Positions 555 through 42,573 of a stretch of 64,000 nucleotides of DNA are shown in pieces. Positions within the stretch are counted from its first letter, which is position 1, and each line of letters opens with the position of its first letter. The position numbers were made by a program, and so were the translations under genes. Under the pieces are notes generated by a model. It was not told the DNA's origin. It ran no database searches and saw only the letters and a program-made list of their open reading frames with translations. The DNA comes from Candidatus Omnitrophota bacterium (GTDB taxonomy: Bacteria; Omnitrophota; Omnitrophia; Omnitrophales; Aquincolibacteriaceae), in assembly GCA_020632475.1 (NCBI GenBank), contig JACKFM010000001.1, positions 272,125 to 336,124 on the forward strand, written 5' to 3'.

Positions 555-3500
555 CTAAAACATTTCAAGCTGGGATTTTTTTGCGGAAGTTCTTGGGGCG
601 TAACGGTTTGCACCGCGTTCAACCAACTCTTCTTCGATTGCTTTTAAAAAGGGAGATGCTTTTTGTTCGCAGACTTTTCCATTCACAACCCGTTTGAGCG
701 CATGAGAGAGGATCAGTTTATCTTTAGCCCGGGTCATGCCGACAAAAAACAGACGGCGTTCCTCAGCCAGGTCTTCATCGCTAATTTCAGGGCCCCAATG
801 CAGCGGCAAAAGGCCTTCTTCGCATCCGGTAATAAAGACGACAGAAAATTCCAGCCCTTTGGCGGCATGCAGTGTAAGCAATGAAACTCTGTCGGCGCGA
901 GGGTCCCAGGTGTCGGCATCCTGGCCTAAGTGAACGGCGGTTAGGAAGTTGTCGCGCTCACCTTGATTTTCGGCTATCAGCATACGCAGTCTTTCAATGA
1001 CGGGATGATTTTTCTGAAGTGAAGTATTTTGGGCCAGAATTTCCTGGGAGGCCTTTTCAAACCATTCAAAAAGATTTTCACTATCCGGTATTTTCTCAAG
1101 ACGGGTGAGATATTGAGCGGCCACTGGATTTTCGTTAAAAGGCACATGGCCTTTGCGTTGAAAAGGAATACCAGAGCGTTCAAAGGCTTCTTCAAGTAGT
1201 GCAGCCTGTTTTTCTGTACGGTAAAGCACGGAAAAATCCGAAAAACCATAATTACGGCCGTCACCTTCACTGCGTTTGCTGTCGATCGAAAAAAATGAAA
1301 AGCCGCCGATAAGCTGTTCAATTGCATGGACGACATGCTCGGCTTCGGCGCGATCGGTGGGAGCGTGGTGGATGGCGATTTTACCCGTATCCGCCAGGAG
1401 CGCGACGGCTTCACGTTCAGGATCCAGGCTTGCGGGACGGATCATCTGCATGGAAGCCGACAAAATGGTTTTACCCGAACGATAATTGTGTTTGAGACGA
1501 ACATGTCGGGCTGATTTAAAGTCTCGGCGAAATTTTAAAAAGAAACCGACGTCGGCGCCGCGAAAACGATAAATCGACTGATCGGGATCCCCGATGACAC
1601 AGAGATTTTCTTTGGGGCCGGTCAAAAGCCGGATCAGGCGATATTGCAGCGCATCAATGTCCTGATACTCATCGGCAGAAATCCAGGAGTAGCGTTTTTG
1701 ATAACCGGCTTGTATCCCTGCATTTTCTTCAAGGAGACGGCAGGGAAGCAGCATGAGATCGTCATAATCCAGCCAGCCCTCACGGTCTTTTTGTGTCTCA
1801 AAAACTGAAAGTGCTTTTTGAACCTCAGGATCTTTTTCGGATGAGCCGCGTTTGGTTTTTGAAACAGCGCGGCAGAGTTTTTGAGCTTTTGATGTGCTGA
1901 TCTGTAAGGCTTTTGCCAGGAAGGACTGCCTTTCCTCATCACTTGTGACTCTGAAAGAGCGCGGCAGGCCCAGAAGCAGGCGGTTTTCACGGATGATTTC
2001 ATAACCCAGAGCATGAAAAGTCAAAATGGGAATGCGTTTGTAGACCATGGGACAAAGGGTTTTAAGCCGTGTACGCATTTCTTCACAGGCCCGGCGTGTA
2101 AAAGTAAGTGTCAGACACTTTTCGGGTGCTACCCCGTGTTCGCTGATCAGAGCGGCAACGCGGTGTGTAAGGGTGCGTGTTTTGCCTGATCCCGGTCCGG
2201 CCGTGATGATCAAGGGTCCGTCTGTGATTTCGACCGCGGTTAATTGTTCACTGTCAAGGTGGTCTTTAAGAACGGCTCCGGGAGTTTCTTTAGGGGAACC
2301 TTCGAAATTCTCTGTGATTTTATTTTCGGAGGTCAGAGCCTTTTTCTTCGGCTCTGAAGATTCTTTTTTTTCTGAGTTCAGCCCTTGTGCAAAATCAAAA
2401 AGGACCCCGGCCGAAACCGGGTTCTTGAGTTCTTTCTCGGTAAAAAGTTTAATCTTGCCATATTCGCCGTCGTAACCGGCATCGCGAATGACGCGGCCTT
2501 CGCGCATGCGTGAAATGGCTTCGGTAATGAGTGTTGAAGAGGCATTTTTAATGTCGTCGATAGGAATGCTGCTTAAAATGTCGAGTTCGGAACCAAGTTT
2601 GGAGAGCAGTCCTTCATAGGCATGTCCGACTTTTTGTGAACTCGGCCCCGACTGTACGGTCTCTGAAATAATTTCAGGCAAGGGTATGAAATTTTTAAAA
2701 TCATCGGTGTTTTCGGGTTTTTCATTTTCCTTGCGGTCCGCAAGTTCTTCAACGCGATAGAGAACACCGAGAGTTAAAGGTTTGTGGCATTCGGGGCATA
2801 GGCCTCCGTTTTGACGGCTCTCGGCAGGATTTAACCGTACACCGCATTTGCGGTGTCCGTCCATATGATATTTGCCCTCTTCGGGAAAAAATTCGATGGT
2901 TCCGCCGAAGTGTTCGCCGGTCTCAAGCGATTTTTTCATGGCAAAATAATCCAGTTCACTATGGAAAATAGTTGCTTCACGTCCAAGTTTTGCGGGTGAA
3001 TGGGCATCTGAATTGGAAATCAGACGATAGCGATCCAGTCCCGAAACACGCCAATTCATTTCCGGATCGGATGACAAACCGGTCTCGACCGCAAAGACAT
3101 GGTCCGCCAAATCCCCATAACAATCGGCGATGGAATCAAAACCCGATTTAGAACCCAGAACCGCAAACCATGGTGTCCAGATATGCGCGGGCACTAAGAA
3201 ACAATCCGGCCCGCCGTTTTCTAAAACAATTTCAAGCAGATGCCGGGAATCAAGCCCGAGAATCGGACGTCCGTCCGAGCGGATGTTACCGATGCTGCCC
3301 AGTTTGGCATTGATTTTTTCAGCCTGTGCAATCGTGGGGGCATAGATCAAATGATGAACTTTGCGGGTCTTATCGCCCTTTTTATAGATGGTCGAAATTT
3401 CGACCGAAAGCATAAATCGTGTTTTGCCGTGGCAGGCGGGAGGGAGCGTTTTCAGAATGTCCTGTTCAAGGTCATCGCGCAATTTAAAAAGACCGGGTTC

Positions 3501-3677
3501 GGCCGGCACCAGTTTATCTTTAATCTCGGCAATCCATGCGGGGTGGGTGAAGTCCCCGGTACCGATTACGGTGATGCCTTTTTTGCGGCCCCAATAAGTC
3601 AGGTGTTCAAGGTCACAGTCCTTACTGGTAGCCCGGGAGTATTTGGAGTGAATATGCAGATCTGCGTAGAAAGACAT
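555..3677 (-). CDS. PHP-domain phosphoesterase fused to a UvrD/Rep-type superfamily-1 DNA helicase
   Basis: 1040-aa ORF. The N-terminus MSFYADLHIHSKYSRA carries the PHP HxH metal-binding signature plus a zinc-ribbon CPECHKPLT. The C-terminal half has Walker A GPGSGKT, the UvrD motif II ISADEYQD and other SF1 helicase motifs (TFH, GMTRAK). Confidence 0.85.
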   Translation of the reverse strand: MSFYADLHIHSKYSRATSKDCDLEHLTYWGRKKGITVIGTGDFTHPAWIAEIKDKLVPAEPGLFKLRDDLEQDILKTLPPACHGKTRFMLSVEISTIYKKGDKTRKVHHLIYAPTIAQAEKINAKLGSIGNIRSDGRPILGLDSRHLLEIVLENGGPDCFLVPAHIWTPWFAVLGSKSGFDSIADCYGDLADHVFAVETGLSSDPEMNWRVSGLDRYRLISNSDAHSPAKLGREATIFHSELDYFAMKKSLETGEHFGGTIEFFPEEGKYHMDGHRKCGVRLNPAESRQNGGLCPECHKPLTLGVLYRVEELADRKENEKPENTDDFKNFIPLPEIISETVQSGPSSQKVGHAYEGLLSKLGSELDILSSIPIDDIKNASSTLITEAISRMREGRVIRDAGYDGEYGKIKLFTEKELKNPVSAGVLFDFAQGLNSEKKESSEPKKKALTSENKITENFEGSPKETPGAVLKDHLDSEQLTAVEITDGPLIITAGPGSGKTRTLTHRVAALISEHGVAPEKCLTLTFTRRACEEMRTRLKTLCPMVYKRIPILTFHALGYEIIRENRLLLGLPRSFRVTSDEERQSFLAKALQISTSKAQKLCRAVSKTKRGSSEKDPEVQKALSVFETQKDREGWLDYDDLMLLPCRLLEENAGIQAGYQKRYSWISADEYQDIDALQYRLIRLLTGPKENLCVIGDPDQSIYRFRGADVGFFLKFRRDFKSARHVRLKHNYRSGKTILSASMQMIRPASLDPEREAVALLADTGKIAIHHAPTDRAEAEHVVHAIEQLIGGFSFFSIDSKRSEGDGRNYGFSDFSVLYRTEKQAALLEEAFERSGIPFQRKGHVPFNENPVAAQYLTRLEKIPDSENLFEWFEKASQEILAQNTSLQKNHPVIERLRMLIAENQGERDNFLTAVHLGQDADTWDPRADRVSLLTLHAAKGLEFSVVFITGCEEGLLPLHWGPEISDEDLAEERRLFFVGMTRAKDKLILSHALKRVVNGKVCEQKASPFLKAIEEELVERGANRYAPRTSAKKSQLEMF

Positions 3678-3735: not shown

Positions 3736-3843
3736 TTTTTGAATATTTCACCAGTCCGCAAAGATTCTCCGGCGCTCAGACATCCTCGGTCCTTACGGGC
3801 CTGCGGAACTCGCGCCGGGAGAACTTTCGTCCTGTTGAAATAA
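3736..3843 (+). repeat. copy 1 of a roughly 105-bp structured intergenic repeat (candidate ncRNA/regulatory element) between the divergent helicase and ppnP genes
   Basis: tttgaatatttcaccagtccgcaaagattctccGGCGCtcagacatcctcggtccttacgggcctgcggaactcGCGCCgggagaactttcgtcctgttgaaata aligns at roughly 90% identity with 8944-9046. Terminal inverted arms are tttcaccag / ctgGtgaaa. Confidence 0.6.
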
Positions 3844-3934
3844 CATCAATTTTTGATTCTTTCTTTTGCAGGGATGACAAGAAAACCTGTACACGGCGTT
3901 AAAATAATATGTTTTCAATGAAAGGGAAAGTTCA

Positions 3935-4252
3935 ATGAGCGAATTTAAAGAAGTCAGTGTGATTAAAAAAGCCAATGTCTATTTCGGTGGTAAAGTGACC
4001 AGTCGTACGATTCAATTCCAGGACGGCTCAAAGAAAACATTGGGTTTTATGCAGGCCGGTGAATATGAATTTGGAACTGCTGCGCCTGAATGCATGGAGG
4101 TTCTAAGCGGAGCCTGTCAGGTGCAATTAGCAGGGCAGTCTGAATGGACGAATTATGAAGAAGGGCAGAGTTTTGATGTGCCCGGTAATTCGAAATTTAA
4201 AATAAAAATTGCCGATATTCTTGATTACTGTTGTGCCTTTATTGAAAAATGA
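3935..4252 (+). CDS. ppnP: pyrimidine/purine nucleoside phosphorylase PpnP (YaiE/DUF1255 family)
   Basis: 105 aa. ANVYFGGKVTSRTIQF...GEYEFGTAAPECMEVLSGACQV...FDVPGNSKFKIKI matches the conserved YaiE/PpnP cupin-like pattern. The stop overlaps the next start (ATGA at 4249-4252). Confidence 0.8.
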   Translation: MSEFKEVSVIKKANVYFGGKVTSRTIQFQDGSKKTLGFMQAGEYEFGTAAPECMEVLSGACQVQLAGQSEWTNYEEGQSFDVPGNSKFKIKIADILDYCCAFIEK

Positions 4253-4614
4253 TTGTCCCTTCATTTCAGAGACTGGCACAGTCGAAATTCAGAGCAGGTT
4301 TTAGGCTAAAGGGTAAAGATCTGGAATATGCCCTTGCCAAAGATGCTGCGGTTTTGCGTCGGCATGCGTTTGATTTTATCCGTAAACGGCTGGCGCCCGA
4401 AAACCCTTTTAAAGACGGTAAGCAGACACCGTTTCGCGGTCATCCGGTATTTGTGGCTCAGCACGCAACGGCCACCTGCTGCCGCTCCTGTTTGAAAAAG
4501 TGGTATTGCATTCCTCGAAACCGCGCATTGAATGAGACGGAAATTGAAAGAATCGCCGATGTCTTGATTTCATGGATTGACCGCCAATGCAGCGCCTCCT
4601 TAAAAAGAATATGA
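4249..4614 (+). CDS. DUF4186 family protein
   Basis: 121 aa with the conserved HATATCCRSCLKKWY block typical of DUF4186. Translationally coupled to its neighbours by ATGA overlaps at both ends. Confidence 0.65.
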   Translation: MIVPSFQRLAQSKFRAGFRLKGKDLEYALAKDAAVLRRHAFDFIRKRLAPENPFKDGKQTPFRGHPVFVAQHATATCCRSCLKKWYCIPRNRALNETEIERIADVLISWIDRQCSASLKRI

Positions 4615-5423
4615 AAATAATAAAACCTTTAGGGTTGTTGATGGCCATTCTTCTTTTGCAGCCGATTTCGCTTTGGGGCGGAACGGATTGGAATGTTCTG
4701 TCGGATTCGGAAAAACAGGTGCTTGAGAGGATTCTGGATCACTGGCAGACTTGGGTGCCCGAGCGTAAAAGCAGCGGAACGGCCGTGATGATGACGTTTG
4801 AAGAGCTTTATGACGGATTAGGAGAAGAAGAAAGCGGTTTTCTTGACCGTTTGCGGGCCATAGATCCAAAGAGGCAGTTTAATTTCCAGGGAGATTTCCT
4901 GGGGAGTGATACGGAGGAAGTTCGCTTCAAACGGGTTGAAAATCAATGGATTGAACGAAACGGAGAGCGTACGCTGCTTTATCCGCAGTATGTTCCTGAG
5001 CCTGTCTATCTCGCTTTTGAAAAAATGATGCGTGCGATGGAAAAGAAAATCGGTAAAAGACTTTTTATTGAATCCGGATTTCGCTCCTCGGCCTATCAGC
5101 TTTATACCTATGTTTATTACATCAATAACCACGCTTATTCATTAGTCGAGACAGGACACTGGGTGGCACTTCCGGGATATAGTGAACATGGCCAGCCGTC
5201 CGTACAGGCTTTGGACCTTATCAATGAACAGGGAATTAACGGCGACGATGACGGCCAAAGTGTTGAGGATTTTGAGAGTCTTCCCGAGTATGCCTGGCTA
5301 ATGGAGCACGGAAGTGAATATGGTTTTGTGCTTTCGTATCCGCGGGATAAACCCGGTATTACGTTTGAGCCCTGGCATTGGAGTTATAGGGGGCCTGCTG
5401 CATTGGGAGGGGGCAGGACTTAA
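4611..5423 (+). CDS. secreted D-alanyl-D-alanine carboxypeptidase, peptidase M15B (VanY-like)
   Basis: N-terminal signal peptide MKIIKPLGLLMAILLLQPISLWG. M15 zinc-peptidase motifs SGFRS, ALPGYSEHGQPSVQALDL (SxHxxGxAxD) and EYAWLMEHGSEYGFVLSYPRDK...EPWHW. The ATG at 4611 overlaps the upstream stop (ATGA); the track's alternative start is at 4587. Confidence 0.8.
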   Translation: MKIIKPLGLLMAILLLQPISLWGGTDWNVLSDSEKQVLERILDHWQTWVPERKSSGTAVMMTFEELYDGLGEEESGFLDRLRAIDPKRQFNFQGDFLGSDTEEVRFKRVENQWIERNGERTLLYPQYVPEPVYLAFEKMMRAMEKKIGKRLFIESGFRSSAYQLYTYVYYINNHAYSLVETGHWVALPGYSEHGQPSVQALDLINEQGINGDDDGQSVEDFESLPEYAWLMEHGSEYGFVLSYPRDKPGITFEPWHWSYRGPAALGGGRT

Positions 5424-5435
5424 GTCCTGTCCCCG
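5407..5435 (+). terminator. near-perfect palindromic hairpin (gggggcaggactTAAgtcctgtcccc) spanning the stop codon of the M15 peptidase gene
   Basis: 11-13 bp stem with one G-U pair and a ttaa centre. It shares the cctgtcccc arm with the intragenic gggacagg/cctgtccc repeat family. No strong U-tract follows, so its function as a terminator is uncertain. Confidence 0.35.
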
Positions 5436-5529
5436 TAAAGGTCTTTATGTTATATTGCGCAGTACTAGCAATTTTGAGTTCAGTAACTCACAATTTTAAG
5501 ATTGAAAAGGTGCTAGAAAGGATGTATTC

Positions 5530-6519
5530 ATGACTAACAAGCGCGTACTTTCGGGTATTCAGCCCACCGGAGGTATTCATCTGGGCAATTATCTCGGGGC
5601 CGTTCAGAATTGGGTGCGGTCGCAGGATGAATACGATAATATTTTCTGCATCGTTGATTTGCATGCCATTACGGTTTACCAAGACCCCAAAATTCTGCGT
5701 AAAAATATTCGCGAACTGGCCGGAATTCTTTTCGCCTGCGGACTGGATCCTCAGAAATGTTCTCTTTTTGTGCAATCGGATGTGACCGAACACACTGAAC
5801 TGACCTGGATTTTAAATTGCACAACGCCGATCGGATGGATGAAGAGGATGACTCAGTTTAAAGATAAATCCGATAAGCAAAAAGAAAAATCCACTATGGG
5901 TCTTTTCGATTACCCGGTTCTGATGGCTGCCGATATTCTTCTCTATGAAACCGATCTGGTGCCGGTCGGAGAAGATCAGAAGCAGCATGTGGAATTGACC
6001 CGTGATATTGCCGAGAAGTTCAACGGAACTTACGGCCCGACGTTTAAAATTCCGGAACCCGTGATTCCCAAAGTCGGTGCCCGGGTTATGGGGCTGGATG
6101 ATCCGGCCAAAAAGATGAGCAAGAGCGAAGAAAAACAGGGGCATGCCATTTTTCTTCTGGATGAACCGGATGTCATCCGTAAGAAGATTATGAGGGCCAC
6201 GACCGACTCCTTAACCACGATCCAGTTTGATGAAAGTAGAGCCGGTATTTATAACCTGCTGTGTATTTACCAGGTCTTAACCGGTGAGGGCAGAGATGCC
6301 ATTGAGAAGCATTTTGAAGGTAAAGGGTACGGTGATTTTAAAAAGGCCCTGGCCGAAGTGGTGATTGAATCATTGCGCCCGCTCCAGGAAAAATATCAGC
6401 AGATTATCGCGGATCCTCATTATGTGGAATCGTTGTTAAAACAGGGGGCTTCCAAGATCAGACCGATTGCCCGTCGCGTAGTGGATGCCGCCAAGGACCG
6501 TATCGGGCTGGGACTTTAA
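5530..6519 (+). CDS. trpS: tryptophan--tRNA ligase
   Basis: 329 aa. Class-I aaRS signature [10 protein letters not shown] (HIGH-type) and KMSKS. Overall TrpS-like architecture. Confidence 0.95.
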
Positions 6520-6531
6520 AAAGGTGTCCGG

Positions 6532-7512
6532 TTGATCGCAAATCTTTTTTTATTCTGGTTACTGTTAAATTCTGTTTTTCCTTACCTGACGACTCCTTAT
6601 CCGCAGGTTGAAATCTTTCTCACCTATCCGCCCCGCATTTTCTGTTTCGCGATGTGTTTCATCTTTGCGATTTATCTCTGGTGGAAGAAATCCCGCATCC
6701 GTCTGACGCTTTTATCATTTGCCGTCATTTTATTTGCAGTGCAGATCGGAATCGGCGGCGGATATAAGGCCGTACCTGCGGATGCCCTCAGACTCTTAAG
6801 CCTGAATACGCATGAGCAATTGGAATATGGTGAGGATTTGCATCAGATCTGTCTGGATAATCAGATCGATATCATCCTTTTGCAGGAGGTTGTGCCCAGC
6901 CACTGGGCACATATTGAAAAGGTTTTTTCGGAATATCAATTTTTCGTGCCGGATATGGACAAGGATATTAAATATAAATATTCATGGTCTTTTGCTTTGC
7001 TGACAGGGATTAGAAAGACACTCCTCAACGGGGCTCCGGTCGATGTTGAAACCGGAATCACACAGTACCGGTCATTTGCCGTAAAGGCCAATCTCCGAGG
7101 GCGCTGGATGTGGATCGCCAATGTGCATATGACTAAACCGATCTCGATTCATCAGGGTGTCCTTGGCTTTTTTGAACGCCTGCAGACAAAGGCCGCCTGG
7201 CATGCTGAGGAAGGGGCTTTGCTTAAAAAATGGGTTGAAGAGCATGATGATTTGCCTCTGATTGCTGCGGGAGACTATAACGCACCCTATTACTCAAGAT
7301 ATTTTCATTCAGCACTATTGACCAACGCACACCGTGCCTCCGGAAGCGGATGGCACTTAAGTTTTCCCAATGTCTTTCCTCTCTGGGGAATTGATCATAC
7401 TTTCGGTAACCGCTGGATCCAGTTTTATCAATATCAAACACCGGACTTGGGCTTTAGCGACCATCGGGCACAGGTTGTCTGGTTCGGCCTCAAAGATGGG
7501 GCGAAGCGATGA
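6532..7512 (+). CDS. membrane-anchored endonuclease/exonuclease/phosphatase (EEP) family protein
   Basis: Three N-terminal hydrophobic helices, then the EEP motifs IILLQEVV, AAGDYNAPY and GFSDHRAQV. The stop overlaps the phrB start (ATGA). Confidence 0.75.
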   Translation: MIANLFLFWLLLNSVFPYLTTPYPQVEIFLTYPPRIFCFAMCFIFAIYLWWKKSRIRLTLLSFAVILFAVQIGIGGGYKAVPADALRLLSLNTHEQLEYGEDLHQICLDNQIDIILLQEVVPSHWAHIEKVFSEYQFFVPDMDKDIKYKYSWSFALLTGIRKTLLNGAPVDVETGITQYRSFAVKANLRGRWMWIANVHMTKPISIHQGVLGFFERLQTKAAWHAEEGALLKKWVEEHDDLPLIAAGDYNAPYYSRYFHSALLTNAHRASGSGWHLSFPNVFPLWGIDHTFGNRWIQFYQYQTPDLGFSDHRAQVVWFGLKDGAKR

Positions 7513-8930
7513 GGGCGATTGTCTGGTTCCGGCAGGACTTAAGACTTGAGGATAATCCCGCACTGATAGCGGCTTGCAAAGATGCAGAAGCTGTCATTCC
7601 GATTTATATCCGGCCGATTGAAAAAAAATCCGCTTGGCCGCTTGGCGGGGCGTCGAAGTGGTGGCTGCATCATTCGCTCAAAAGTCTGGACTCTGATTTG
7701 CGCAAGGTAGGATCAAAATTGATTGTACGTCAGGGGGATTGTCTTGAAACGCTGCTTTCGATCATTGAAGAGACGGGAGCGCGCAGGATTTGTTGGAATC
7801 GCCGGTATGAACCGAAATCCATTGAATACGATAAAAAAATCAAAGCCCGGCTTTTAGAGCTTGGATATCAGGTTGAAAGTTTTAATGGACACCTGCTTTA
7901 TGAACCCTGGGAGATTAAGAACAAACAGGGTGACCCCTATCAGGTTTATACGGCATTTTGGAATCAGATTCACTCAATGAAAGAGCCGTCTAAACCCTTG
8001 AATGCCCCCAAACAAATTCCGACGCCGGATAAATGGCCGCAATCACTTCAAATTGACAAGCTGCAGCTTGAACCCCGGATTAAATGGGATACGGGTTTGC
8101 ATGCGCAGTGGATTCCCGGTGCTGCCGAGGGCCGCAAAAAACTCAAGACGTTTGCAAGAGAAGATGTGGAACACTATGCTTCAGAACGCGACCGGCCTGA
8201 TCACCGAGGGACTTCCGAGCTTTCGCCTTATTTGTGTTTTGGAGAGATTAGTGCGCGTATGGTTTGGCATGCGCTGCAAGGTGTTCCGAAATCAACCGAT
8301 TACCGGAGGCAGATTGTGTGGCGTGACTTTGCCTATCATTTGCTCTATTATTTCCCGCAGACGCCGAATAAAAATTTGAAAAAAAAATTCGATGCCTTTC
8401 CCTGGCAGCCGGACAAAACGCTATTGAAAGCCTGGCGGAAAGGGTGTACCGGTTATCCGGTCGTTGATGCGGGGATGCGTCAATTGTGGGGCACGGGCTG
8501 GATGCATAATCGTGTGCGTATGATTACCGCATCTCTTCTGGTTAAACATTTTTTAATTCCCTGGCAGAAGGGAGCCGAGTGGTTCTGGGATACGTTGGTG
8601 GATGCGGATCTGGCCAATAATACCATGGGGTGGCAGTGGGTTGCAGGGTGCGGGGCCGATGCCGCGCCGTATTTCAGAATTTTTAATCCCGTTCTGCAGG
8701 GTGAGAGGTATGACCCTGCCGGAGATTATGTGAGGCGTTGGGTACCTGAACTTGCAGGGCTTCCATCCAAATGGATTCACAAACCCTGGCAGGCTCCGGA
8801 TGAAATTCTAAGCAAGGCGGGAGTGAAGCTTGATCAAAATTATCCGAGGCCGGTGGTTGATCATGAATCGGGAAGAAGGCGGGCACTGATGGCCTATGAA
8901 AAGATTAAGGGTGGAGATCGTGCTAAGTAA
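7509..8930 (+). CDS. phrB: deoxyribodipyrimidine photolyase (class I CPD photolyase)
   Basis: 473 aa. The N-terminus VWFRQDLRLEDNPALIAA is nearly identical in pattern to E. coli PhrB. The FAD-binding domain motifs TGYPVVDAGMRQLWGTGWMHNRVRMITASLL and NTMGWQWVAG are present. Confidence 0.9.
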   Translation: MRAIVWFRQDLRLEDNPALIAACKDAEAVIPIYIRPIEKKSAWPLGGASKWWLHHSLKSLDSDLRKVGSKLIVRQGDCLETLLSIIEETGARRICWNRRYEPKSIEYDKKIKARLLELGYQVESFNGHLLYEPWEIKNKQGDPYQVYTAFWNQIHSMKEPSKPLNAPKQIPTPDKWPQSLQIDKLQLEPRIKWDTGLHAQWIPGAAEGRKKLKTFAREDVEHYASERDRPDHRGTSELSPYLCFGEISARMVWHALQGVPKSTDYRRQIVWRDFAYHLLYYFPQTPNKNLKKKFDAFPWQPDKTLLKAWRKGCTGYPVVDAGMRQLWGTGWMHNRVRMITASLLVKHFLIPWQKGAEWFWDTLVDADLANNTMGWQWVAGCGADAAPYFRIFNPVLQGERYDPAGDYVRRWVPELAGLPSKWIHKPWQAPDEILSKAGVKLDQNYPRPVVDHESGRRRALMAYEKIKGGDRAK

Positions 8931-8943
8931 TAGTGCATAAGTC

Positions 8944-9046
8944 TTTGAATGTTTCACCAGTCCGCAAAGATTCTCCGACGCTCAGACATCCTCGGCCCTT
9001 CGGTCCTGCGGAACTCGCGTCGAGAGAACTTTCGTCCTGGTGAAAT
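8944..9046 (+). repeat. copy 2 of the roughly 105-bp structured intergenic repeat, immediately after the phrB stop
   Basis: Same element as 3736-3843. The internal stem ccGACGC...GCGTCg replaces ccGGCGC...GCGCCg of copy 1, a compensatory double change that preserves pairing. Confidence 0.6.
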
Positions 9047-9106
9047 AGCTTCTAATTAATTTTCACTTAATGACTTAGTGTTTAGATAGATAAGGTAGAG
9101 GTGTGT

Positions 9107-10018
9107 ATGAAAATTATTTTGACCGGAGGAACGGGTTTTATCGGTAGACCGCTGGTGAATCAATTGGTGGCTAAAGGGTACTCCGTGGTTCTTTTAACGC
9201 GTAACCCTTCGGGAATCAAAGAAACCAAAGGAGCTGTAGAGGCGCATTATTGGGATGGCCGATCAAACGGTCCCTGGGCTGCGGCTTTGGAAGGTGCGGA
9301 CGCGGTGATTAATTTGGCCGGAGAGCCGATTGCAGCCAAACGCTGGACATTAAAACAGAAGGAAAGAATTATTTCAAGCCGCGTGGACGCTGCGTATGCT
9401 ATTGTAAACGCCATTCGTTCCTGCGAGCACAAGCCCAAGGTTTTAATTAACGCCTCGGCGGTAGGATATTATGGCAATGTGGATGACGGTGACATTGATG
9501 AAAGTCATGATCGAGGGAAAGGTTTTTTGGCTCAAACATGTGATTTGTGGGAACAGGCAGCCGCGCAGGCTGAAAGTATGGGCATCCGCACGGTTTATTT
9601 GCGGATTGGTGTTGTGCTTGAGCGGGGAGGCGGTGCAATCGAAAAAATGATTCTGCCGTTTCGATTGTTTGCCGGAGGACCTCTCGGCAGCGGAAAACAA
9701 TGGTTTCCCTGGATTCACCGGGATGATATGATTGGGATTGTTTTATACAGTCTTGAGAATACCTCTGTCCGCGGACCGGTGAATGCGACGGCCCCCGGCC
9801 CCGTGACGATGAAAGGTTTTTGCAGCGCGCTCGGAAAAGTGATGAGAAGACCTTCTTGGGCGCCGGTTCCGGGTTTTATTTTGCGGTTGATGTTGGGAGA
9901 AATGTCTGAAATGCTTTTGGATGGACAAAAAGTGATCCCTGAAAAAATAACAAAAGCCGGTTATCAATTTAAATATCCGGACATCCGCTCAGCTTTGAAA
10001 GTTATTTTCAAAGGTTGA
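9107..10018 (+). CDS. TIGR01777/SDR39U1 family NAD-dependent epimerase-like protein (YfcH-like, C-terminal DUF1731)
   Basis: MKIILTGGTGFIGRPLV Rossmann motif. About 300 aa, typical of the YfcH family. AGGTAGAGG RBS upstream of the ATG at 9107; the track start at 9101 is GTG. Confidence 0.8.
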   Translation: MKIILTGGTGFIGRPLVNQLVAKGYSVVLLTRNPSGIKETKGAVEAHYWDGRSNGPWAAALEGADAVINLAGEPIAAKRWTLKQKERIISSRVDAAYAIVNAIRSCEHKPKVLINASAVGYYGNVDDGDIDESHDRGKGFLAQTCDLWEQAAAQAESMGIRTVYLRIGVVLERGGGAIEKMILPFRLFAGGPLGSGKQWFPWIHRDDMIGIVLYSLENTSVRGPVNATAPGPVTMKGFCSALGKVMRRPSWAPVPGFILRLMLGEMSEMLLDGQKVIPEKITKAGYQFKYPDIRSALKVIFKG

Positions 10019-10074
10019 AAAGAGAATAGAGAGAATTCATGGCCCGAAAAGTGAGTGCATTCCAATTGTCGATA

Positions 10075-10133
10075 GACCACAGTCCATAGCAAAAGCAACT
10101 GAGTCAATGGACTATGGACTATTGGCTGTGGAC
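10075..10133. repeat. imperfect palindrome built on the cagtccatag / ctatggact unit
   Basis: agtccatag (10081-10089) pairs with ctatggact (10112-10120), and ccacag pairs with ctgtgg. The same 10-mer cagtccatag occurs at 3714-3723, and tggactctag recurs inside giant ORF 1 (about 22840-22850). Confidence 0.4.
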
Positions 10134-12658: not shown

Positions 12659-13225
12659 AGTTCAAATAGAGCACATTCTAACATTTACCTGCATTTTTAA
12701 ACATCCGCTGATGACTTTTTTACCCCCATTTGTATTCTCAAAACCCGCCGTGTACCTTTTGATATCTTTCATTTCTGATTGGGGTTAAGGCTCAATACGG
12801 TAAGAATTTTTCGCACCGTTTTTTACCGCATTTTCATGCGGCTAAAAAATCGAGCCGTTCAAAAATGATTTTTTATGATCCGGAATTAAAAATCGTTCAG
12901 GGAAGAATTATTTTTTAAAAAGGCACGCACGGAGTGTCTTTTTTTAAAGGGACTTTTTTAATTCTTTTAGAGAATTTTTCAATACTCGGATTAAAAGGTT
13001 CTGTTGAAAGCCTTATGAGAAGAGTGACGAGGGTAAAGAAAATGTTATGTGGAAACAATTAGCGCCGTCTATGAGCGAAGGAGATCACCTCGCCGCATAG
13101 GTGGGGAAGCTCCTAAGCGATTGGCGCATTTCACAATAACATTTTCTTTATCATCTTAAATATCTAATCAGATTAGGGGTTTTAACAAAACCAAATCAAA
13201 AGAATACAGGGTTGCTTTTTATCCA

Positions 13226-16200
13226 ATGCTTATGCAAAAAACAAAAAAACAATATCTGAAAATCATCGCGGTGTTAACAGCCGTTGTCTTTACATTGACA
13301 TCGCTTGAACTGCAGCCTTTGGCTCGAGCGATGCAGGTGGCTCCGGCGGCTGTTTCAGGTGAGATCTCCCCTCATTCTGTGTTTGAATTAAACCTTCCAC
13401 CGGAACTTGGCGTGATTCAAAACCTCATCAGCGGAGACCGTGGGGCCATTGTCCATTTACAGGCAGCGCATGGCAATTATGACGCACAGAAAAAAATTGA
13501 AAATATCCTGCACTATCTCAAAGATCAATACGGGATGAATCTTTTATTGGTTGAAGGAAGTGCGTTTAAACTTCGGCCTGAGAGAATTCGCTTTTTCCCC
13601 AAACAGATGAATTTGAATAGGGAGATTCTTGAGGGGTTAGCGCACAAGGCCCTGGTGAAGGGCGCCGAGCTTTTTCTGGCGGAGGATAAAGGAGCCGAAG
13701 CCTACGGGATTGAAAATCTTGAGACCTATAAAGCCGATGCCGAGGCCTTCCGGTCTGTTATGGAACACCGTGAACAAATCGAGAATTTCCTGAAACGTCT
13801 GCATCAGGACATTGAGGCACTTAAAGCGCAAACGCTCAACCCGGTTTTGAAAAATTTTTTACGTGAGGCCGAACGCTATTTTCAAAATACGACACTGCTT
13901 GGCGACCGGATTCATTGGCTGGCCGCTCAATCTAAAGATCAGCTGGAAATAGACTTTTCAAATGTGATTTACCAGATGGATTGGCCGATGCTTGTGCGTT
14001 ACTTCGCTTTAAAGACAGTTGAGGGAAAACTGGACTCAACTGCGTTTGAAAAAGAACGCGATGCGTTCCTGGCAGTATTGGTCGGGGACAGGGCCGAAGC
14101 CCTGCCTGCCGGACAGGCGGGCCTGTCCCCGTTGGTCACAAAACGAGTCACGACTCTGCTTACTGAACCTATATCCGAAAACCAACTGCCTGACCCCGAA
14201 ACCGGCCTTCTTTTTGAAAAAATGGCCGAAGCGCTGCCGTTGAATTTTGATTATGACGCTTATCCGAATGTGAAACTTTTTATCGGGCATTTGATTCTGC
14301 AAAGTGAGATCAAAGCCGCTCCTTTATATGCTGAAATCGACCGTCTTGAAAATCAAATTTTAGAGAAACTGATCCGTACCCCCGCTGAGCGTGAAGTTGT
14401 TGAGAAGATCAAACAGGCCAGACTGCTTGAAAAGCTTTTGCATCTTGAATTAATGCCTGAGGAATGGAAAAAACTGCAGACCGCAGACTTGGCGACGGGG
14501 AGAAAAGAGACGGGGCGACAGGGTGAAGGGGTGACGGGGAGTGAGTCTGTCATTCCAGCGGAAGCCGCGCCATCCGGCGGACAAGCAGGAATCCATAGTA
14601 CAACCGAGCCTTCGGCCTTCGACCTTCTGCCTTCCCTCTCTGCTGAGCGGCCGTCCGTTCAGTCCTCCCGCCACACAGAAGGCGGGCAGGCAGCCCTCAG
14701 CCCTCAGTCCTTTGATATCCCCGAAGACATGCAGACGATTTATCAAAACGCGTTGGAGTTTTACCGCCTGGCCGAAAAACGTGATGAAGCGATGCTTGAA
14801 AACATTGAGGCTAAGCTGGCTGAGACCGGAAAGAATAAAGCCGTCGTGATCACCGGAGGTTTTCACTCGCAGGCTTTTTTTGAGCATTTTCGTGAAAATG
14901 GATACAGCTACGCTTTGGTCTCACCCGAGATAAAAGAACTCAGCGGCCGTGAAGCGTATGTCGAGAGTATGCTGAAAAATTCGTCGGCCCACAGGCGACA
15001 AACCGCAGACGACGGACTTGCGACAGAGATTGCTTCGCCTACGGCTCGCAATGACGGTAGTCTAAGTATCATTCCTGCGCAAGCAGGAATCCACAGTACA
15101 ACCGAGACCTCTCGGCCCTCAGCCCTCAGCCCTCAGTCCTCTTTAGAGTCACTTTTCCTCGCCCTCTCGCGTCAGGAAATTGAACAATCCGGCGGCAACA
15201 CACGCTGGCTTTTTCAGCAGGTGCGTAATGAAATTAGAAATGTGCTTAAACGTCACGATTTGAAGGCTCTTGATCTGAAATCTGAGTTGAGGACGGATGC
15301 AACGGATGAATCCGCATCTGCAGCTGCTGCAGATACAGAGATGTTTGCGCCTGAAATTACATGGATCCGTCAAGCTTCAGGTGAACAGGGCGATCAGCCT
15401 TATCTGATTCGTCTAAGGCTTGAACAAAGCAAAGCTCTTTCGGGGGGTACCGGTTTTCAGAACCGTTACCTTGTTGAGGTGGCGGCGCTTGACCAAATGA
15501 TGGATATTGATACGGTTCAAAATAACCCTCGCCTTTATGCCGGAAGTATTTCCTTGACTTTTGACTGGCAGGGAAAGCTGATTAAGAACGAGCAGTTTAA
15601 TTTAATTTTTTTGATCGGAATCGACCTTATTTTTAACGAGATTTTGAAAAAAGATATTCAGCCTTTCATTTTGCAGAAACTCGAAAGCCTGACCGGAAAA
15701 GCTTTTAATGAGACCAATGCCGAACTGATTGATGGTGCGGCATCGTTTGATGATGTTTTGAGACATGACCGGCGCTTGTCGCCTGAGCGTGACTATAACG
15801 CATTAACCCCGGGACAATTCAGGAATACTTTTTATGCCGGTTATGAGAGCGGCCGTATTCAGCATGAGTCCATGTATGAGCAATGGAAAGCTACGGGTGG
15901 AACTGAAGGGGAAGATAAATTTCATATCGGTGGAATGATCATCCTGAGAAAAATAAATGGTAAATGGTCTTTTCTGCTCGGTCGCCGAAATAAAACCGGC
16001 AAACCTTTCTACCGTGACTATACCATTCCTGTCGGCAAGAAAGAATCCCGGATTGGCCTGGGCCTGGAATTTGACCGGTTTTTTAACCAGCGCAAGCTTG
16101 AAAAATTGAAAACGATAGGTCTTACGCTGCATGACGGTGAGATCATGGATCCCGTCGAGTTTATTGCTGAGGCCGCGTTGCGTGAAACGATTGAAGAAAC

Positions 16201-19200: not shown

Positions 19201-22200
19201 TCCGAACCTTCATCTTAAGGTAATTACTAAGCCGGGAGAGATTCAAGGTGCGTTGTCAGAAGCCGGTTTGATTTTTAAAACTCATGATAGTGAAAAGCTA
19301 TTTATTTCTGAACAAAAAATTCCTGAGGGAGTCAGAGTTCTTGAGGTGCCCTTAGCCGCTCAGCAAACCATAGAGTCGCTTTTGGATGACCGTATCCGGC
19401 CGGAAAAACTGAATGTTCATAACCCTTTGTCGCTCGGGCGTGTCAACCCTATCCGGCGTATTATCGCGGTTGAGGGAAGAGGTAAAACTCCGCCGCACCT
19501 GGTGGTGGAATTTTCAAGCCCTGCGGGCGGTTATTCCTCGAAATTTATCCGGTTGAATATTCTTCACGAATCGCTGCCTGAAAGCCCCCGGGAAGATGAG
19601 ATGACCGATGCTTTTATGAAACGTGTTTTTGAGTACAACTATGCCGTGTTGCAGGGCTTTGAAATTAACGGAACGGAGTCGGCAGAAGACCGAAAAAGAA
19701 TTATTGACGGATTAAAAGATTTGGCCGCTCAAGGATTGATTCTGGCCGAGACCCGTTATGAGTTAAAACATGATGAGGAACATATAGGGCGTTTTGCCGA
19801 TTTTACCGCCAGATCAGAAACGGAAGCAAAAGCCATTCGGGCTTTTTATCCGGCGATATACGCGAGGGACACCTTGGCCACTCACCGTATGAGATTGGCC
19901 CAAAAGCTGGGTTTTAATCTAGGAATGTATGGTCCGCAGACGGCGGCAATTTTTCTTAAGCGGGTTCATATGATTGATGTTCATCCGGAGCTGAGCATTC
20001 TTCGGGATGAAGCCGAATCGAAGGGGTTCTTTGCGCCGCTGATTGCCTTGAGTGTCGCCGCCGAAGATGATGGATCGATTTTATTGGGCGATGCGAATGC
20101 CGAAATAGATTCTTTTATGGCCAAGGTTTTGAATGTTATTGGAAAAGCCAGGCGGCCTTCAATTGATTTGGTCGGGCGGCTTGAAACCGTTGAAGCATTG
20201 ATTCAAACCAAAGCCGAATCGGATGCTGCCGGAACTGCCAATTCAAAAGCATGGATCATTGATACCGGTGATCCTGAGGAGGACAGAACGCTTGCCCGCG
20301 AAATTCGTTACATCTTCAGGCTGGAAGTTCTTTATCGCCTGACTTATGAAACATTTCACAGTGACAATCTTATCAGGGGAACTCATGCTGATGGTACGTC
20401 GATGCGTGTTAAGGTTTGGAATGCTCTTTCGCAGAAGGCAGAGCAGATATGGCACAGTGATACTACGTCAAGCCGCATCTGGATGCTTGCTCTAAATGTA
20501 AACAGAGATAAGTGGGAGTCGTTTGTGGCTGAGCAGTGGCCCGGCTTTTGGCAAATTTTTACCGAGCCTGAAACCGAGGATAATGGAGCTTTTCTTGCCC
20601 AAAATTCCGGTGTTATGGCGATTAATCAGCGCAGACTGCTTCCTGCGAGTTTGCCTGAGACGTTGGGTAAATTTTCAAAATTCACAGAAAGAGATATGCC
20701 TAGAGAAAAAACCGGTTTTGATATAACCGCAATTCCAAACAGAACAACATTAACGGCTGAGGAAATTAGGGCCGGGATAACCTTGAAAAAATTCCCGGCA
20801 CAAAAACTGAACGGGGGATTTGAAGCTATTTTGCAGAGTTTGAAGCGGTCTGGCATTGAAGATCTCGCCAGATTTAAACGCAAGGAATCCAGAAAGATGC
20901 AGGCTTTTCTTGATGACATCGTGGCTATCCGTGAACTTTATGAAGCCGGGCATTATGAAGAGGCTCTAAGAATTGTGAACCGCTACGTTGCCTTTCAGCC
21001 TCAGCCAGCCTCTGCAGCGGATGGGGCCGTGGTTAGCGGGGACAGGGCTGAAGCCCTGTCCCCGGATTCAACGGCAGCGGCAAGTACAGCCGCATTACTC
21101 ACCGGTACCGGCGATGAGGGTGCTCACATTGATTGGCGCGGGTACCTGCCCGAGGGGGATTTGATCGAACCTCCGGTTGATGGCGCGGCAGAGGCCTTAG
21201 GTGAGATGCAGACGCGTTTGATCGAAAAAGTTAAGCGGCGTTCAGGAGGAACCTCCGTGGTAACCATTCTTCACGACTTGGATCGTGCCGGACATATTGG
21301 ACAAACATTTAATGTCCTTATGGCCGCGCTTGCAAAAATTGCAGAGGGCCATGAGGATGACGACACTGCAGCGGCACGTGCGCTGGTGGATGAGATTAAA
21401 ATTTTAATCCCCAGGCAAATTAAATCAGGGGCCTCTGCAGACATTGATGCCTTTGAAGAAAAAACACATGAAATGTCAGATGACGATGCGCTTAATGAGC
21501 TTGAAGTCATAGAAACCGATTTTAGTCAGACGGTTGACGTTTTGAGAGGACCGGTGGCAGGAGAAATTTTTAGTGATCAGTTGGATGAAGGGACCCGGGC
21601 TTTTGAACAGAGCCTTGAGTATCTTGGTAAAGTCCGCCGTGTTTTGGAAAGTTCAATTGCAATGACCCATGATGCAGCTAATCATCCCGAAACTGTTCGC
21701 GGTCTTTTACAATCAAGCGCGGAACTTGCCGGTGAATTCAACGCTGAAAATCAATGGGGGATACGCCTCGGGTTCGCGAGGGCTGCTTATGCACGCCGTT
21801 TTACCGACGCGGCTCTTGCGGGTCAGACGCAAACACAGACCGCAGACTTGGAGACGGGGAGAGTTGGAGACGGGGAGACCCGCCAAAAAGAAGTCGGGCA
21901 AGCGGGGCGAGAGTCTGTTGGCGTCGATGCAGCGGAACCGACACTTCAAAAAAGCAGAAGACAGCTTTTGGCTGAAACACAGCCTGAAGTTTCCAAACAC
22001 GATCCGGAAAACCCGGATGAATTATGGACTTTTGTCCAAAGTGAAGGGTGTGAAGGGTGCATGATTGTGCAGTTCACACCCGGAGGCTGGCTTTACTCAA
22101 CTGAAAGTCAGGCACGTGTGCGCGAGGCTTTTAATAAAAATGATCAAACGCGGGCTAAAAAAAGAGATGCTGACACAGTGTCGAATGCTATGGCGGCATA

Positions 22201-25200
22201 TCGGGAGACATCGGCTGGAAGCGTTGTGATTGTTCCGGACGAAAGAATTAATCTGCGCGGGGCATGGCATGATTCGGGTAATAAGGTGCTTTATTTTGGC
22301 GAGAAAGTTTTTCGTGCTGCAACGGCTGCGATGATTGTCGTCGCATTAGAAAAACATGATTTGAATGGCCTGAATCAGGCGGCTGCAGCGTATTGGAAAT
22401 CGGTCGCTCAGTCAGCGCAGCCTGCTGCCGTGCCTAAAAAGAAAAAAGATAAAAAAGAAAAAAAGAAAAAGCGTAAAGAAAACAGAGCGGCGGCAAGAGG
22501 GCCTCAGGATTTAACCGCAGAGATTGCGATCCTCGAAGGTTTTCCCGGTATGCAGGAAGAGTTGCGTGCAGTAAGCGTGAATGAGTCTGCAAGTCCGGAA
22601 GTCGAAAGTCCGGAAAGTCCTCAACATGACGTTGAACCCGTTCAGCCGGTCGAGCGACTAGCGACGAGCGACGTCAGTACAGCTGAGTCAGAAGGTCCGA
22701 AAGAGGCTGTTGAGCCAGTTGAGCTTCCTCAGTCCTCCCGCCAAACAGAAGGCGGGCAGGCAGTCCTCAGTCCTCAGACCCCTGAAGCCGTTGAGTCCGA
22801 ATCCCAAGTCGTCGTTGAGCCGGTGGATAGTGGACCGTCGACTGTGGACTCTAGTGCAGCTGAGATTGTTGAACCAGTTGAGCCTATGGACCATGGACTA
22901 CCGACGGTGGACTCTTCTGGTGCAACCGAGCCCCCTCAGCCCTCAAATATACTTGACCCCGCATTGCGCGTGCGATTTAAAGAATCGGTTCAGGCCGGCG
23001 TGATTCGCGGGCAGGTTTCCGCAAATAGGATGTTTTTAGAAAAGCCCAATCCGCTTGTCGGCGAATTCGATCAAAAGATTGTACTTGATACAAGCGAGAT
23101 GCCCGACGGAGCTTTTTTTGTCATGCCGGTTTCAACCCCTAAGGATACCGTGATGCCGCTTGTTCAGGCGCCCGATGCGGTTAAGAGGGGGCGTATCGCC
23201 AAAATACGCCGGTATGTCAGTCAGCACACACTGGATACTCAGATCATGGAGCATACGGATCAAGTGACGGCTCTGGTCAAAGCCGGCCGGGCGGTAAAAG
23301 GAGAGCCTAAAACACGGTTTGAAGCGATTTTTGACCGGGGTATTGAATTACTTTTAATTCCGGATGCGTCCGGAAAGACTGTTGAACAACGGATGCATGA
23401 AACGGAGGTCCGGTATGCCGGGCGACATGAAGAGTTTGAAAAGACGGTTCGGGCAGTTCAGGATTATAACCGCTGGTTTCTCTACTACAGTAGCCGGTTT
23501 GTAGATTTGACCGGCCGTCTCAAAAAAAAGACCGGGGACAATCAACAGGTCGATGTCGAAGTTCTAAGTGAAATTCTGACTGAGTTGGCGCGGAGTGAAA
23601 AGACATGGCCTGAGCTTCAATCTGAGATCAAAAGGATCAGAGAACATATTCCGTCTTCCGGAACCATGAATTATCAGGAAGCGCGGTTGCTTATCGGGCG
23701 GGGTGAGTCGATCATCGGAAACATGATTTTGGATGATATGCTCAGCGCGGCATCTCCTGATATTTTGCAGGTTGTCTTCTACGATGCGCGCAGCACTTTT
23801 TTTCTGGAGTGGTATCGAACTCAAAAACAAGCGATTCCCGAAGGCGAGGATGACCTTTTGCGTTTTGAGGCCACGCTCTTAATGAGTGTGCGCATGCTGG
23901 TCAACTATAAGCTGGAAAGCCAAATGACGGAACAGATCACGGAAGCCGCCAGGGAGTTTAGTGCGAATGAGCGAATGACCCGTAAAGTCGTGAGTGCAGG
24001 AGGCCTCCTTTATGCCGGTCAAACCAACCGTTATTTTCAAGGCGGCGGTGCAATCGAAACCAGCGGTGAATATGCCCCGAATTATTCACGGATCCATAGC
24101 AGCGCTTTTTATGAAAAAGGAGACCGGGTCATTTTTCTTTATCATTCCGAAACCGGTTATCCCAACCCTGCCGAGCAGCAGAATTATTTAAACGACTCAA
24201 CAATCCTGAGAGAGTCTCTTGAAGACAATGCCGGTGTTTATCTGGGAACGATTGATGCTGAAGGGGAGTTGAGAATTTTTGAATATGCCGGCAATGATTT
24301 AGGAATTGAAACATTTGAATTTGTGGAGGCCTTTGACCGGGCCTTGGACAAAAAATTCTGGGCCCCGATCAAAACTTCGGCATTGAAAAGTGAAGACGAA
24401 CTGAGGGTGGAACGTCGCCGCATCACCGCGCATCAGTTTGCTCAGATTGCCGAAGCCGAGCTGGCACAAATACCCGGCATGGATCAGGTCAAAGCCTCAC
24501 GTCTAATGCTCGATGCCCGTCGTCAGTTTAAACCCGAGCTTGACCGGCTGGCGGCAATGAAATTGAAACACCCCGGTGCACCGCCGAAAGCCAAAAATCT
24601 TCAAAAAGCATACAAGAAACAATTAAAAGCAGTCCAGGTGGAATTGGATGTTGTGGACGATTTGATTGATTCATTGGCGGCACGGCTTGTGATGTATATC
24701 AGTGAAAGGATTGCGGCCGAAAGCCCTGATCACGGGGATTGGAAGCAGATTGCAATTGAAGGCCTGAGCGGAATTGTTCCGCCGCGATGGGTGCCTGTTG
24801 AAGAACTTGAGGTCCCCGCACAACCTGTGCCTGCCGGGAAATCACCGGCGGCCGGTTTAAGTGATGAACGGCAGGCTAAGCTTGCGTCGCAGATTGACCA
24901 AGTGATTGAATCTGTGATTTCCAAAACGGAAATGACTGACGGGGATGAAATTGCAGCGCTTCGTGCGTTTGCACATACGCAATGGGATCACGGTGGTAGT
25001 CCGGGTTATGCACGGCTCAAAGCGGCCTGGAATCAGAACCGCGCGGTTTTTGTACAAATCAGCGCATTGCAAGGTGTGGAACCCGGTGATCTGCAGGCGG
25101 TTGAAACCGCTCTCAGTCATTCTGTGCAGGCCACCAGGCCGCAGGCAAGAATCGAGCAGGCGCAAAAGGAATTGCTTAGCCGCATGGCGGATGCCGTATT

Positions 25201-42565: not shown

Positions 42566-42573
42566 CCCAAATA

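Follow-up and report, generated by a model that had tools for sequence, protein, structure and literature searches.

Two copies of a roughly 110-bp palindrome lie in the 64-kb stretch of Omnitrophota DNA analyzed here (the window), and we read them with moderate confidence as members of a lineage-specific, non-coding family of dispersed repeats. Such a family would be MITE-like and comparable to ERIC/IRU, Correia/NEMIS, RUP and bcr1. The repeat unit measures 109-111 bp, and the homology ends abruptly on both sides, the flanks of copies 1 and 2 being unrelated. In the pairwise alignment, the copies display ~92% identity over 105 nt, and the window has exactly two occurrences of a 20-mer of the element, versus 0.01 expected by chance. 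The initial annotation had placed the copies at about 3736-3843 and 8944-9046 on the + strand, and both were recovered there, with the best boundaries listed in Table 1. The sole reading frame open through copy 1 is disrupted by a 1-nt indel in copy 2, leaving no conserved ORF.

Table 1. Repeat copies, their hairpins and the neighboring genes (window positions).
Feature	Position	Strand	Basis or remark
UvrD-like helicase, N-terminal TIGR00375/MJ0043_C-type domain	555-3677	-	divergent from copy 1
Copy 1 of repeat	3738-3848	+	pairwise alignment; model R1 score 137.9 bits
Hairpin proper, copy 1	3744-3842	+	RNA fold
ppnP	3935-4252	+	ORF list
Six-gene co-directional tight cluster: ppnP, DUF4186, VanY-like peptidase, trpS, EEP-family protein, phrB	3935-8930	+	ORFs, NCBIfam, Pfam
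Copy 2 of repeat	8944-9052	+	pairwise alignment; model R1 score 130.3 bits
Hairpin proper, copy 2	8950-9047	+	RNA fold
TIGR01777 (yfcH-like) oxidoreductase	9107-10018	+	NCBIfam TIGR01777, 363.8 bits
Single compensatory base pair	G3772-C3815 (copy 1) to A8978-T9020 (copy 2)	+	alignment fold, columns 35/78

The copies carry terminal inverted repeats of 10-11 nt, which are imperfect in copy 1 and continue into a near full-length imperfect palindrome. Copy 2 has a perfect inverted repeat, ATTTCACCAG / CTGGTGAAAT, which in copy 1 carries one mismatch (CTGTTGAAAT). The arms tttcaccag/ctggtgaaa, initially described as preserved, are accordingly fully complementary in copy 2, while copy 1 reads ctgTtgaaa, with a C.T mismatch at alignment columns 14/98. 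The element displays two of the features by which MITEs are recognized, namely terminal inverted repeats, for which about 10-15 bp is the expected minimum, and a length below ~400 bp with neither a transposase nor a conserved ORF. Terminal inverted repeats together with long stem-loops that are stable at the RNA level are typical of bacterial MITE-type repeats (PMC3184786). Similarly to our element, the Correia/NEMIS repeats of Neisseria, pneumococcal RUP, cyanobacterial Nezha and Geobacter Chunjie are intergenic, non-coding units of ~100-150 bp that combine terminal inverted repeats and a very stable long stem-loop (at the RNA or DNA level) with sharp boundaries and unrelated flanks (PMC3184786). 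Unlike these known MITEs, the element, seen directly in two copies, displays no sequence similarity to anything searched, no consistent target-site duplication and no cognate IS in the window.

Both copies occupy intergenic positions, in two of the few sizeable spacers of the region, and their gene context is as first described, with copy 1 between the helicase and ppnP and copy 2 between phrB and the TIGR01777 gene. Copy 1 lies 60 nt 5' of the divergent helicase start codon and 86 nt 5' of the ppnP start codon, and a sigma-70-like promoter match (3713-3684, - strand) is found outside the element on the helicase side. Copy 2 begins 14 nt past the phrB stop (8930) and finishes 55 nt short of the yfcH-like start codon, so that both copies, in the same + orientation, are positioned 55-86 nt 5' of a + strand start codon. 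The genes downstream of the two copies are functionally unrelated. The ppnP-phrB cluster bracketed by the copies has the same GC content as the surrounding sequence. Its phrB product matches GenBank MCB9799349.1, encoded by a Candidatus Omnitrophica MAG, with 100% identity; the nearest homologue otherwise is only 62% identical. The window also contains a ThyD NCBIfam match and CCTCAGT heptamer arrays, the latter within giant ORFs; a cyanobacterial origin, considered on account of these two features, was rejected in view of the phrB identity.

RNA folding offers a greater level of detail about the palindrome. Each copy adopts a single ~37-bp hairpin with bulged bases, at about -44 kcal/mol and a z of about -5. 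For copy 1, the + strand folds at -43.8 kcal/mol (z -5.0) and the - strand at -46.2 kcal/mol (z -4.7); for copy 2, the values are -43.7 kcal/mol (z -5.2) and -48.4 kcal/mol (z -5.2), respectively. The - strand fold is therefore the more stable one by 2.4-4.7 kcal/mol. Comparison of the copies recovers the covarying pair of the initial annotation, a change from G-C to A-T, with no second compensatory pair beside it, and additionally a single A-U to G.U change. In a simulation of random mutation at the observed divergence, about 2.5% of trials preserved the fold (p about 0.025). Such better-than-chance retention of the fold fits constraint on the hairpin and is suggestive but not strong. The earlier claim of selection on secondary structure is partly supported, by one compensatory pair and the fold retention, and is tempered by our estimate that one such pair between two sequences would arise by chance in ~10% of cases. 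The asymmetry of G.U versus A.C pairs was considered as an indicator of the functional strand and discarded, as each copy has one G.U on the + strand and yet the - strand folds better.

Evidence on the size of the family comes from short reads. Several sequencing runs yield Logan contigs that match the window with 100% identity along the whole of each contig, yet always break inside the two copies. Contig ends fall at 3765 and 9039 and contig starts at 3743, 3784 and 9010, and the overlap at 9010-9039 is an exact one of 30 nt; the contigs that encode the exact yfcH-like protein all start at 9010, inside copy 2. Together, they extend the sequence beyond the window by 2.9 kb on the left and by 0.2 kb on the right. 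Logan contigs are assembled at k=31, and copies 1 and 2 have no 27-mer or 31-mer in common, nor does either copy share one with its own reverse complement. Breaks in both copies thus point at assembly-graph branching caused by further near-identical copies, and additional copies are probably present elsewhere in the genome. Co-occurring variants, instead of paralogous copies, could in principle produce the same breaks. The condition named initially as refuting a structured RNA element, that only two copies exist, holds for the sequence observed directly and is contradicted indirectly by the contig breaks.

Within the 64-kb window, a search of its whole length with model R1 and filters off returned no further copies. 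A candidate third copy with an internal deletion at ~31530-31600 (- strand), obtained in a 16-mer search allowing 2 mismatches, was dismissed as a chance match; it lies inside an 8922-aa ORF and is not scored by R1 at E<=10. Exact 19-mer scans of genome and metagenome contigs gave chance matches only, none of them accompanied by the rest of the element. A gapped two-anchor search of viral contigs and distant BLASTN against plasmids and phages retrieved nothing, and a 201-aa concatenation of the six frames of copy 1 had no match at E<=10 in a set of 5.8 billion proteins. The element is also absent from 73 kb of the phrB loci of the closest relatives. In one of these relatives, L022, no more than 20 nt separates phrB from an SRPBCC gene or the latter from the yfcH-like gene, and model R1 finds no element there, although L022, with a phrB only 61% identical, is too remote to represent a true empty site.

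The 64-kb window contains no transposase, integrase or recombinase, and hence offers no partner IS whose ends match those of the element. No consistent target-site duplication is common to both copies. TTTTTGA is present on both sides of copy 1 (3736-3742 and 3850-3856), with the left occurrence overlapping sequence shared with copy 2; around copy 2 there is no matching direct repeat, and two copies cannot fix the ends of the element.

The most serious alternative, which we consider unlikely, is a dedicated structured RNA on the + strand (a cis-acting leader, a 3'-UTR element or a small RNA) whose selected hairpin would control the ppnP operon and the yfcH-like gene. The compensatory pair, the A-U to G.U change and the retained fold energy would all agree with such an RNA, and the common orientation and the distance to the start codons fit a leader, although two copies agree in orientation by chance half of the time. 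The initial annotation had proposed a small or regulatory RNA, for which we find nothing specific. The palindrome folds on both strands and better on the antisense one; no Rfam family reaches its gathering threshold anywhere in the window, and a permissive Rfam search around copy 1 returned noise (12-13 bits, E above 4). Sigma-70 and intrinsic-terminator scans place no promoter or terminator consensus inside or abutting the element, nor anything common to the copies. A lone, near-perfect long hairpin is, moreover, unlike ligand- or protein-sensing leaders, and the basal stem of copy 1 retains its mismatch uncompensated. The candidate target genes have no functional relation to each other, and the phrB-to-yfcH stretch of the syntenic relative L022 lacks the element. 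Folding on both strands, the missing promoter, terminator and Rfam matches, unrelated downstream genes and absence from the syntenic relative are features that characterize dispersed palindromic repeats (MITE-like, ERIC, bcr1).

The RNA alternative draws additional weight from a second palindromic repeat family, unrelated in sequence to the ~110-bp repeat. This family 2, ~125 nt long with 15-nt terminal inverted repeats, is present at 13027-13156 and in the DNA adjoining the left edge of the window. It displays 4 compensatory pairs, several G.U pairs and no broken pair, and folds better by 5-11 kcal/mol on the strand of the downstream gene. Its presence nearby indicates that the genome hosts palindromic repeat families of this kind, and its covariation and strand bias make constraint at the RNA level plausible for such elements in this genome. 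A broader version of the leader hypothesis, to which we give a still lower probability, would unite the element and family 2 as Omnitrophota-specific structured leader RNAs, held ~55-90 nt 5' of start codons in fixed orientation by selection at the RNA level. Such leaders would form a new class of cis-regulatory RNA rather than selfish DNA, and could serve as sites for RNase III or other processing, or as protein-binding sites coordinating unrelated genes, a giant gene and RtcB among them.

Factor-independent terminators or insulator hairpins at operon boundaries are improbable. Both copies do sit at the boundaries of the ppnP-phrB block, copy 2 directly behind a stop codon, but neither strand of either copy has a U-tract after the hairpin, and the terminator scan finds none. 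A terminator also makes little sense at copy 1, upstream of two divergent genes, and the short GC-rich hairpins (GGGACAGG...CCTGTCCC) at gene ends, 5404-5437 and 42569-42602, appear to be more terminator-like. REP/BIME repeats, which can affect mRNA stability, are likewise extragenic palindromes at operon boundaries; REPs, however, are GC-rich hairpins of 20-40 nt, usually clustered in alternating orientation and RAYT-linked, whereas the element is ~110 nt long and solitary.

In integron attC sites, the hairpin base carries the core motifs R'' RYYYAAC and R' GTTRRRY. Integron attC-like or attL/attR-type repeats, which would make the 5.2-kb ppnP-phrB segment a cassette or an integrated island, are very improbable: like attC sites and CALIN clusters, the copies are attC-length imperfect palindromes with bulged bases that bracket a co-directional gene block exactly and in direct orientation, but the R' position reads GTTGAAA in copy 1 and GGTGAAA in copy 2, the R'' position reads TTTCACC in both, neither IntI nor another recombinase is present in the window, the copies 5.2 kb apart enclose six housekeeping genes (trpS among them) with the composition of their flanks rather than an array of short cassettes, and their 8% divergence is unlike that of freshly made att sites.

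A MITE-like dispersed repeat remains the reading that we prefer, and its closest counterparts in form are the enterobacterial 127-bp ERIC/IRU and Bacillus bcr1. These are also imperfect palindromes, of ~100-155 bp, located in intergenic regions beside genes. Compensatory changes that keep the RNA structure of a mobile repeat are reported for bcr1, as well as for an IS-derived stem-loop of Borrelia (PMC3184786). In contrast to ERIC/IRU and bcr1, the element has its host in a different phylum and displays no sequence homology to them; bcr1 additionally folds into two stem-loops as a cruciform and comes with 5-bp direct repeats, whereas the element forms one hairpin.

The behavior of a MITE-like family can be pictured as follows. 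The element would have been copied, by transposition or another form of insertion, into permissive intergenic sites. Each copy would then be co-transcribed with its neighbors, copy 1 probably in the leader of the ppnP operon and copy 2 probably in the 3' end of the phrB transcript or in the yfcH-like leader. The transcript could form the ~37-bp stem-loop and, by analogy with such repeats elsewhere, may affect mRNA processing or stability. Upkeep of the hairpin might reflect a requirement of the mobilizing or maintenance machinery, usefulness of the RNA hairpin itself, or arm-to-arm templated repair of quasi-palindromes, which would restore complementarity.

If the elements were instead transcribed, structure-selected leaders, they would matter more, as a lineage-specific class of regulatory RNA in a group that has received little study and may be predatory or host-dependent. 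As a MITE-like dispersed repeat, the element would be routine genome furniture, in a phylum for which we found no description of intergenic repeat families in the Omnitrophota genome papers checked. In this organism, every copy of such a repeat breaks up short-read assemblies, and the repeats could be used to mark strains or to gain access to the repertoire of mobile elements.

The repeat pair proposed in the initial annotation (3736-3843 and 8944-9046) is genuine, with ~92% identity over 105 nt by BLASTN and both copies in the same orientation; MAFFT aligns them over the slightly different extents listed in the table. Their ~100-nt core differs by eight substitutions and one 1-nt indel, and one of the element's 20-mers is present at exactly two places in the window, where chance predicts 0.01. 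As the homology stops abruptly at either end and the flanks are unrelated, the element is a discrete unit rather than part of a duplicated segment. It is also non-coding, since the sole frame open across copy 1 is disrupted by the indel in copy 2. A TTTTTGA heptamer is located on either side of copy 1 (3736-3742 and 3850-3856), with no counterpart at copy 2, and may represent a target-site duplication or a coincidence in T-rich spacer DNA.

Both copies form an imperfect palindrome across nearly their entire length. The forward-strand RNA of each folds into one hairpin of ~37 bp, at -43.8 kcal/mol for copy 1 and -43.7 kcal/mol for copy 2 (z -5.0 and -5.2 against dinucleotide shuffles), and the reverse strand folds no worse (-46.2 and -48.4 kcal/mol). 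The terminal arms had been described as preserved, which is true of copy 2, where the basal stem ATTTCACCAG/CTGGTGAAAT is perfect, but less so of copy 1, where the arm reads CTGTTGAAAT and a C.T mismatch results. The covariation claimed for the internal stem holds: G3772-C3815 of copy 1 is replaced by A8978-T9020 in copy 2, the one compensatory change among 37 pairs. Of the other differences, one turns A-U into G.U at the stem base, and the remainder affect the apical loop region, a bulge or positions beyond the stem.

By a rough estimate, the chance that, among ~10 random differences, two land in paired columns and give a canonical pair again is of the order of 0.1. In a simulation, changes matching the observed ones in number and type were scattered at random over either copy; the 3000 mutants folded at a mean of ~-33 kcal/mol (sd ~5), and only 2.5% of them reached the stability of the actual counterpart copy. 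The hairpin has been kept better than chance, with modest support. Selection on structure, as originally suggested, is consistent with this retention of the fold; the constraint may act on the RNA or on DNA in single-stranded or cruciform form, or may come from templated repair between quasi-palindrome arms. A compensatory change does not discriminate between MITE-type repeats and dedicated RNAs, as the structure of Bacillus bcr1 is likewise preserved by compensatory changes (PMC3184786; PMC11602168).

The gene neighborhoods originally assigned to both copies were confirmed. Between the copies lie six co-directional, tightly packed genes (ppnP, DUF4186, VanY-like, trpS, EEP-family and phrB), with the same base composition as the flanks, and no transposase or integrase is present in the 64-kb window. 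The helicase is a 1040-aa fusion of an N-terminal TIGR00375/MJ0043_C-type domain (residues ~99-409) and a UvrD/PcrA-like core. Two giant ORFs occupy about two-thirds of the window and leave few real intergenic spacers; genes of such size are known to occur in Omnitrophota. Many short DNA repeats, among them families D1-D5, D7, D9 and D13 and arrays of CCTCAGT-type heptamers, lie inside these ORFs and hence are coding repeats, not intergenic elements. A GC-rich perfect hairpin of the GGGGACAGG-N-CCTGTCCCC type recurs at 5404-5437, 42569-42602, 14079-14112, 21033-21066 and 55035-55068; two copies are placed as terminators would be, at or just past the stop codons of the VanY-like and an epimerase gene, and three fall within the giant ORFs. 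The yfcH-like/CbiX spacer contains an imperfect palindrome (10068-10133) with an unremarkable fold (z ~-2), made of a GGACTATGGACT-like motif that also occurs twice within the 8922-aa ORF (22816-22917).

Coordinates of the element, family 2 and neighboring features (window positions unless stated otherwise)
Feature	Position	Strand	Context
UvrD-like helicase	555-3677	-	divergent from copy 1
Element, copy 1	3738-3848	+	257-nt spacer between helicase and ppnP
ppnP	3935-4252	+	other side of the copy 1 spacer
phrB stop codon	8930	+	copy 2 starts 14 nt later
Element, copy 2	8944-9052	+	between phrB and the TIGR01777/yfcH-like gene
TIGR01777/yfcH-like gene	9107-10018	+	copy 2 ends 55 nt before
Family 2 copy	13027-13156	+	8922-aa ORF starts 70 nt downstream
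Giant ORF, 8922 aa	13226-39994	+	
Giant ORF, 5401 aa	45530-61735	+	
Family 2 copy	L011 6446-6575	- (of L011)	57 nt upstream of an RtcB gene just outside the left window edge, which L011 adjoins

The two copies served to build a covariance model, which was applied unfiltered to the entire window and returned these copies and their weak reverse-strand echoes, and no others. A third candidate near 31.5 kb was rejected, being within a giant ORF and receiving no score from the model. Rfam gave no match, whether the threshold was gathering or permissive; no copy turned up in viral contigs, plasmids or phages, and six-frame peptides matched nothing in the protein collection. Exact 19-mers found only chance matches, without the rest of the element, in GTDB species-representative genomes and JGI metagenome contigs. 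The element is thus without a sequence relative in anything searched. The phrB product is identical (100%) to MCB9799349.1 of a Candidatus Omnitrophica MAG, and the runner-up among 5.8 billion proteins shares 62% identity, leaving no close relative for comparison. The phrB loci of the nearest relatives, 73 kb in all, contained no significant match to the model. One of these loci is partly syntenic (HSP20 pair, phrB, SRPBCC gene, yfcH-like gene); its phrB/yfcH-like interval holds the extra SRPBCC gene and gaps of <=20 nt, without the element.

Short-read assemblies offer an indirect view of copy number. Logan contigs that encode window proteins were obtained from at least five sequencing runs; each agrees with the window from end to end without a mismatch, and none crosses copy 1 or copy 2. 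Contigs from the left stop at 3765 (two runs), and those entering the ppnP block begin at 3784 (two runs) or 3743 (one run). At copy 2, contigs leaving phrB stop at 9039 (two runs) and contigs into the yfcH-like gene begin at 9010 (three runs), an overlap of exactly 30 nt, as expected for a branching node in a de Bruijn graph with k=31, the value we take Logan to use. The opposite ends of the same contigs vary among runs. Because the two copies have no 27-mer or 31-mer in common, nor with their own reverse complements, they cannot alone cause these breaks. They would be explained most simply by additional copies within this genome or its community that resemble copy 1 or copy 2 more closely than these two resemble one another. 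Elsewhere, contigs from two runs (window 58936 or 59395 to 64197) share an end base in a coding gene 197 nt past the right window edge, which may mark another repeated sequence.

Contig ends also revealed family 2, an unrelated palindromic intergenic repeat of ~125 nt, within which one Logan contig terminates (window 13061). Its two copies, 80-83% identical, have 15-nt terminal inverted repeats, form a long hairpin (z -5 to -7) and share their orientation relative to the downstream start codon. Among 39 pairs, four are compensatory, four show single-sided changes between Watson-Crick and G.U, and none is broken. The downstream gene's strand folds more stably than the opposite one, by 5.6 and 11.1 kcal/mol. 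Structural evidence is stronger for family 2 than for the element. A family 2 model found no additional copies in the sequence analyzed, and Rfam gave no match.

The element is small and non-coding, has sharp ends, terminal inverted repeats and palindromic symmetry, folds on both strands and occupies unrelated intergenic spacers; it is absent from relatives and public collections, has probable extra copies and is accompanied by a family of like build. In these features it agrees with bacterial MITE-type repeats as described in the literature, which have terminal inverted repeats flanking a core, measure under ~200-400 bp, form long, very stable stem-loops at the RNA level and are often co-transcribed, affecting expression (PMC3184786; PMC11602168). 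It is built, and would work, like a MITE/ERIC/bcr1-type repeat, but is a candidate for the MITE class rather than an established member, for which target-site duplications, a partner IS, empty sites and copy number would count.

A dedicated RNA (a leader or a small RNA), as first proposed, has in its favor the shared orientation of the copies at 55-86 nt from start codons and the analogy with family 2, but it is unlikely given that promoter or terminator signals were not found, the antisense strand folds better, the target genes are unrelated and the syntenic relative is devoid of the element. An Omnitrophota-specific class of structured leader RNAs appears a little more doubtful again. A role as terminator or insulator is very improbable, since the U-tract is missing and copy 1 separates divergent genes. 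Integron attC-like or att sites can be set aside almost entirely, as core motifs, integrase and cassette structure all fail. RNA-level roles are often acquired by MITE-like repeats, so these alternatives are compatible with a dispersed repeat.

We consider it reasonably probable that the element is a MITE-type dispersed repeat, which would have been copied into permissive intergenic sites and would be carried as a hairpin in the leader of the ppnP operon and in the untranslated region between phrB (3') and the yfcH-like gene (5'), where it may modulate mRNA processing or stability. Its architecture is seen directly; mobility, copy number, transcription and an effect on expression we infer. With family 2 beside the element, the hairpin-forming intergenic repeats of this genome make up at least two families, and the element is most probably ordinary repeat DNA in a little-studied phylum.
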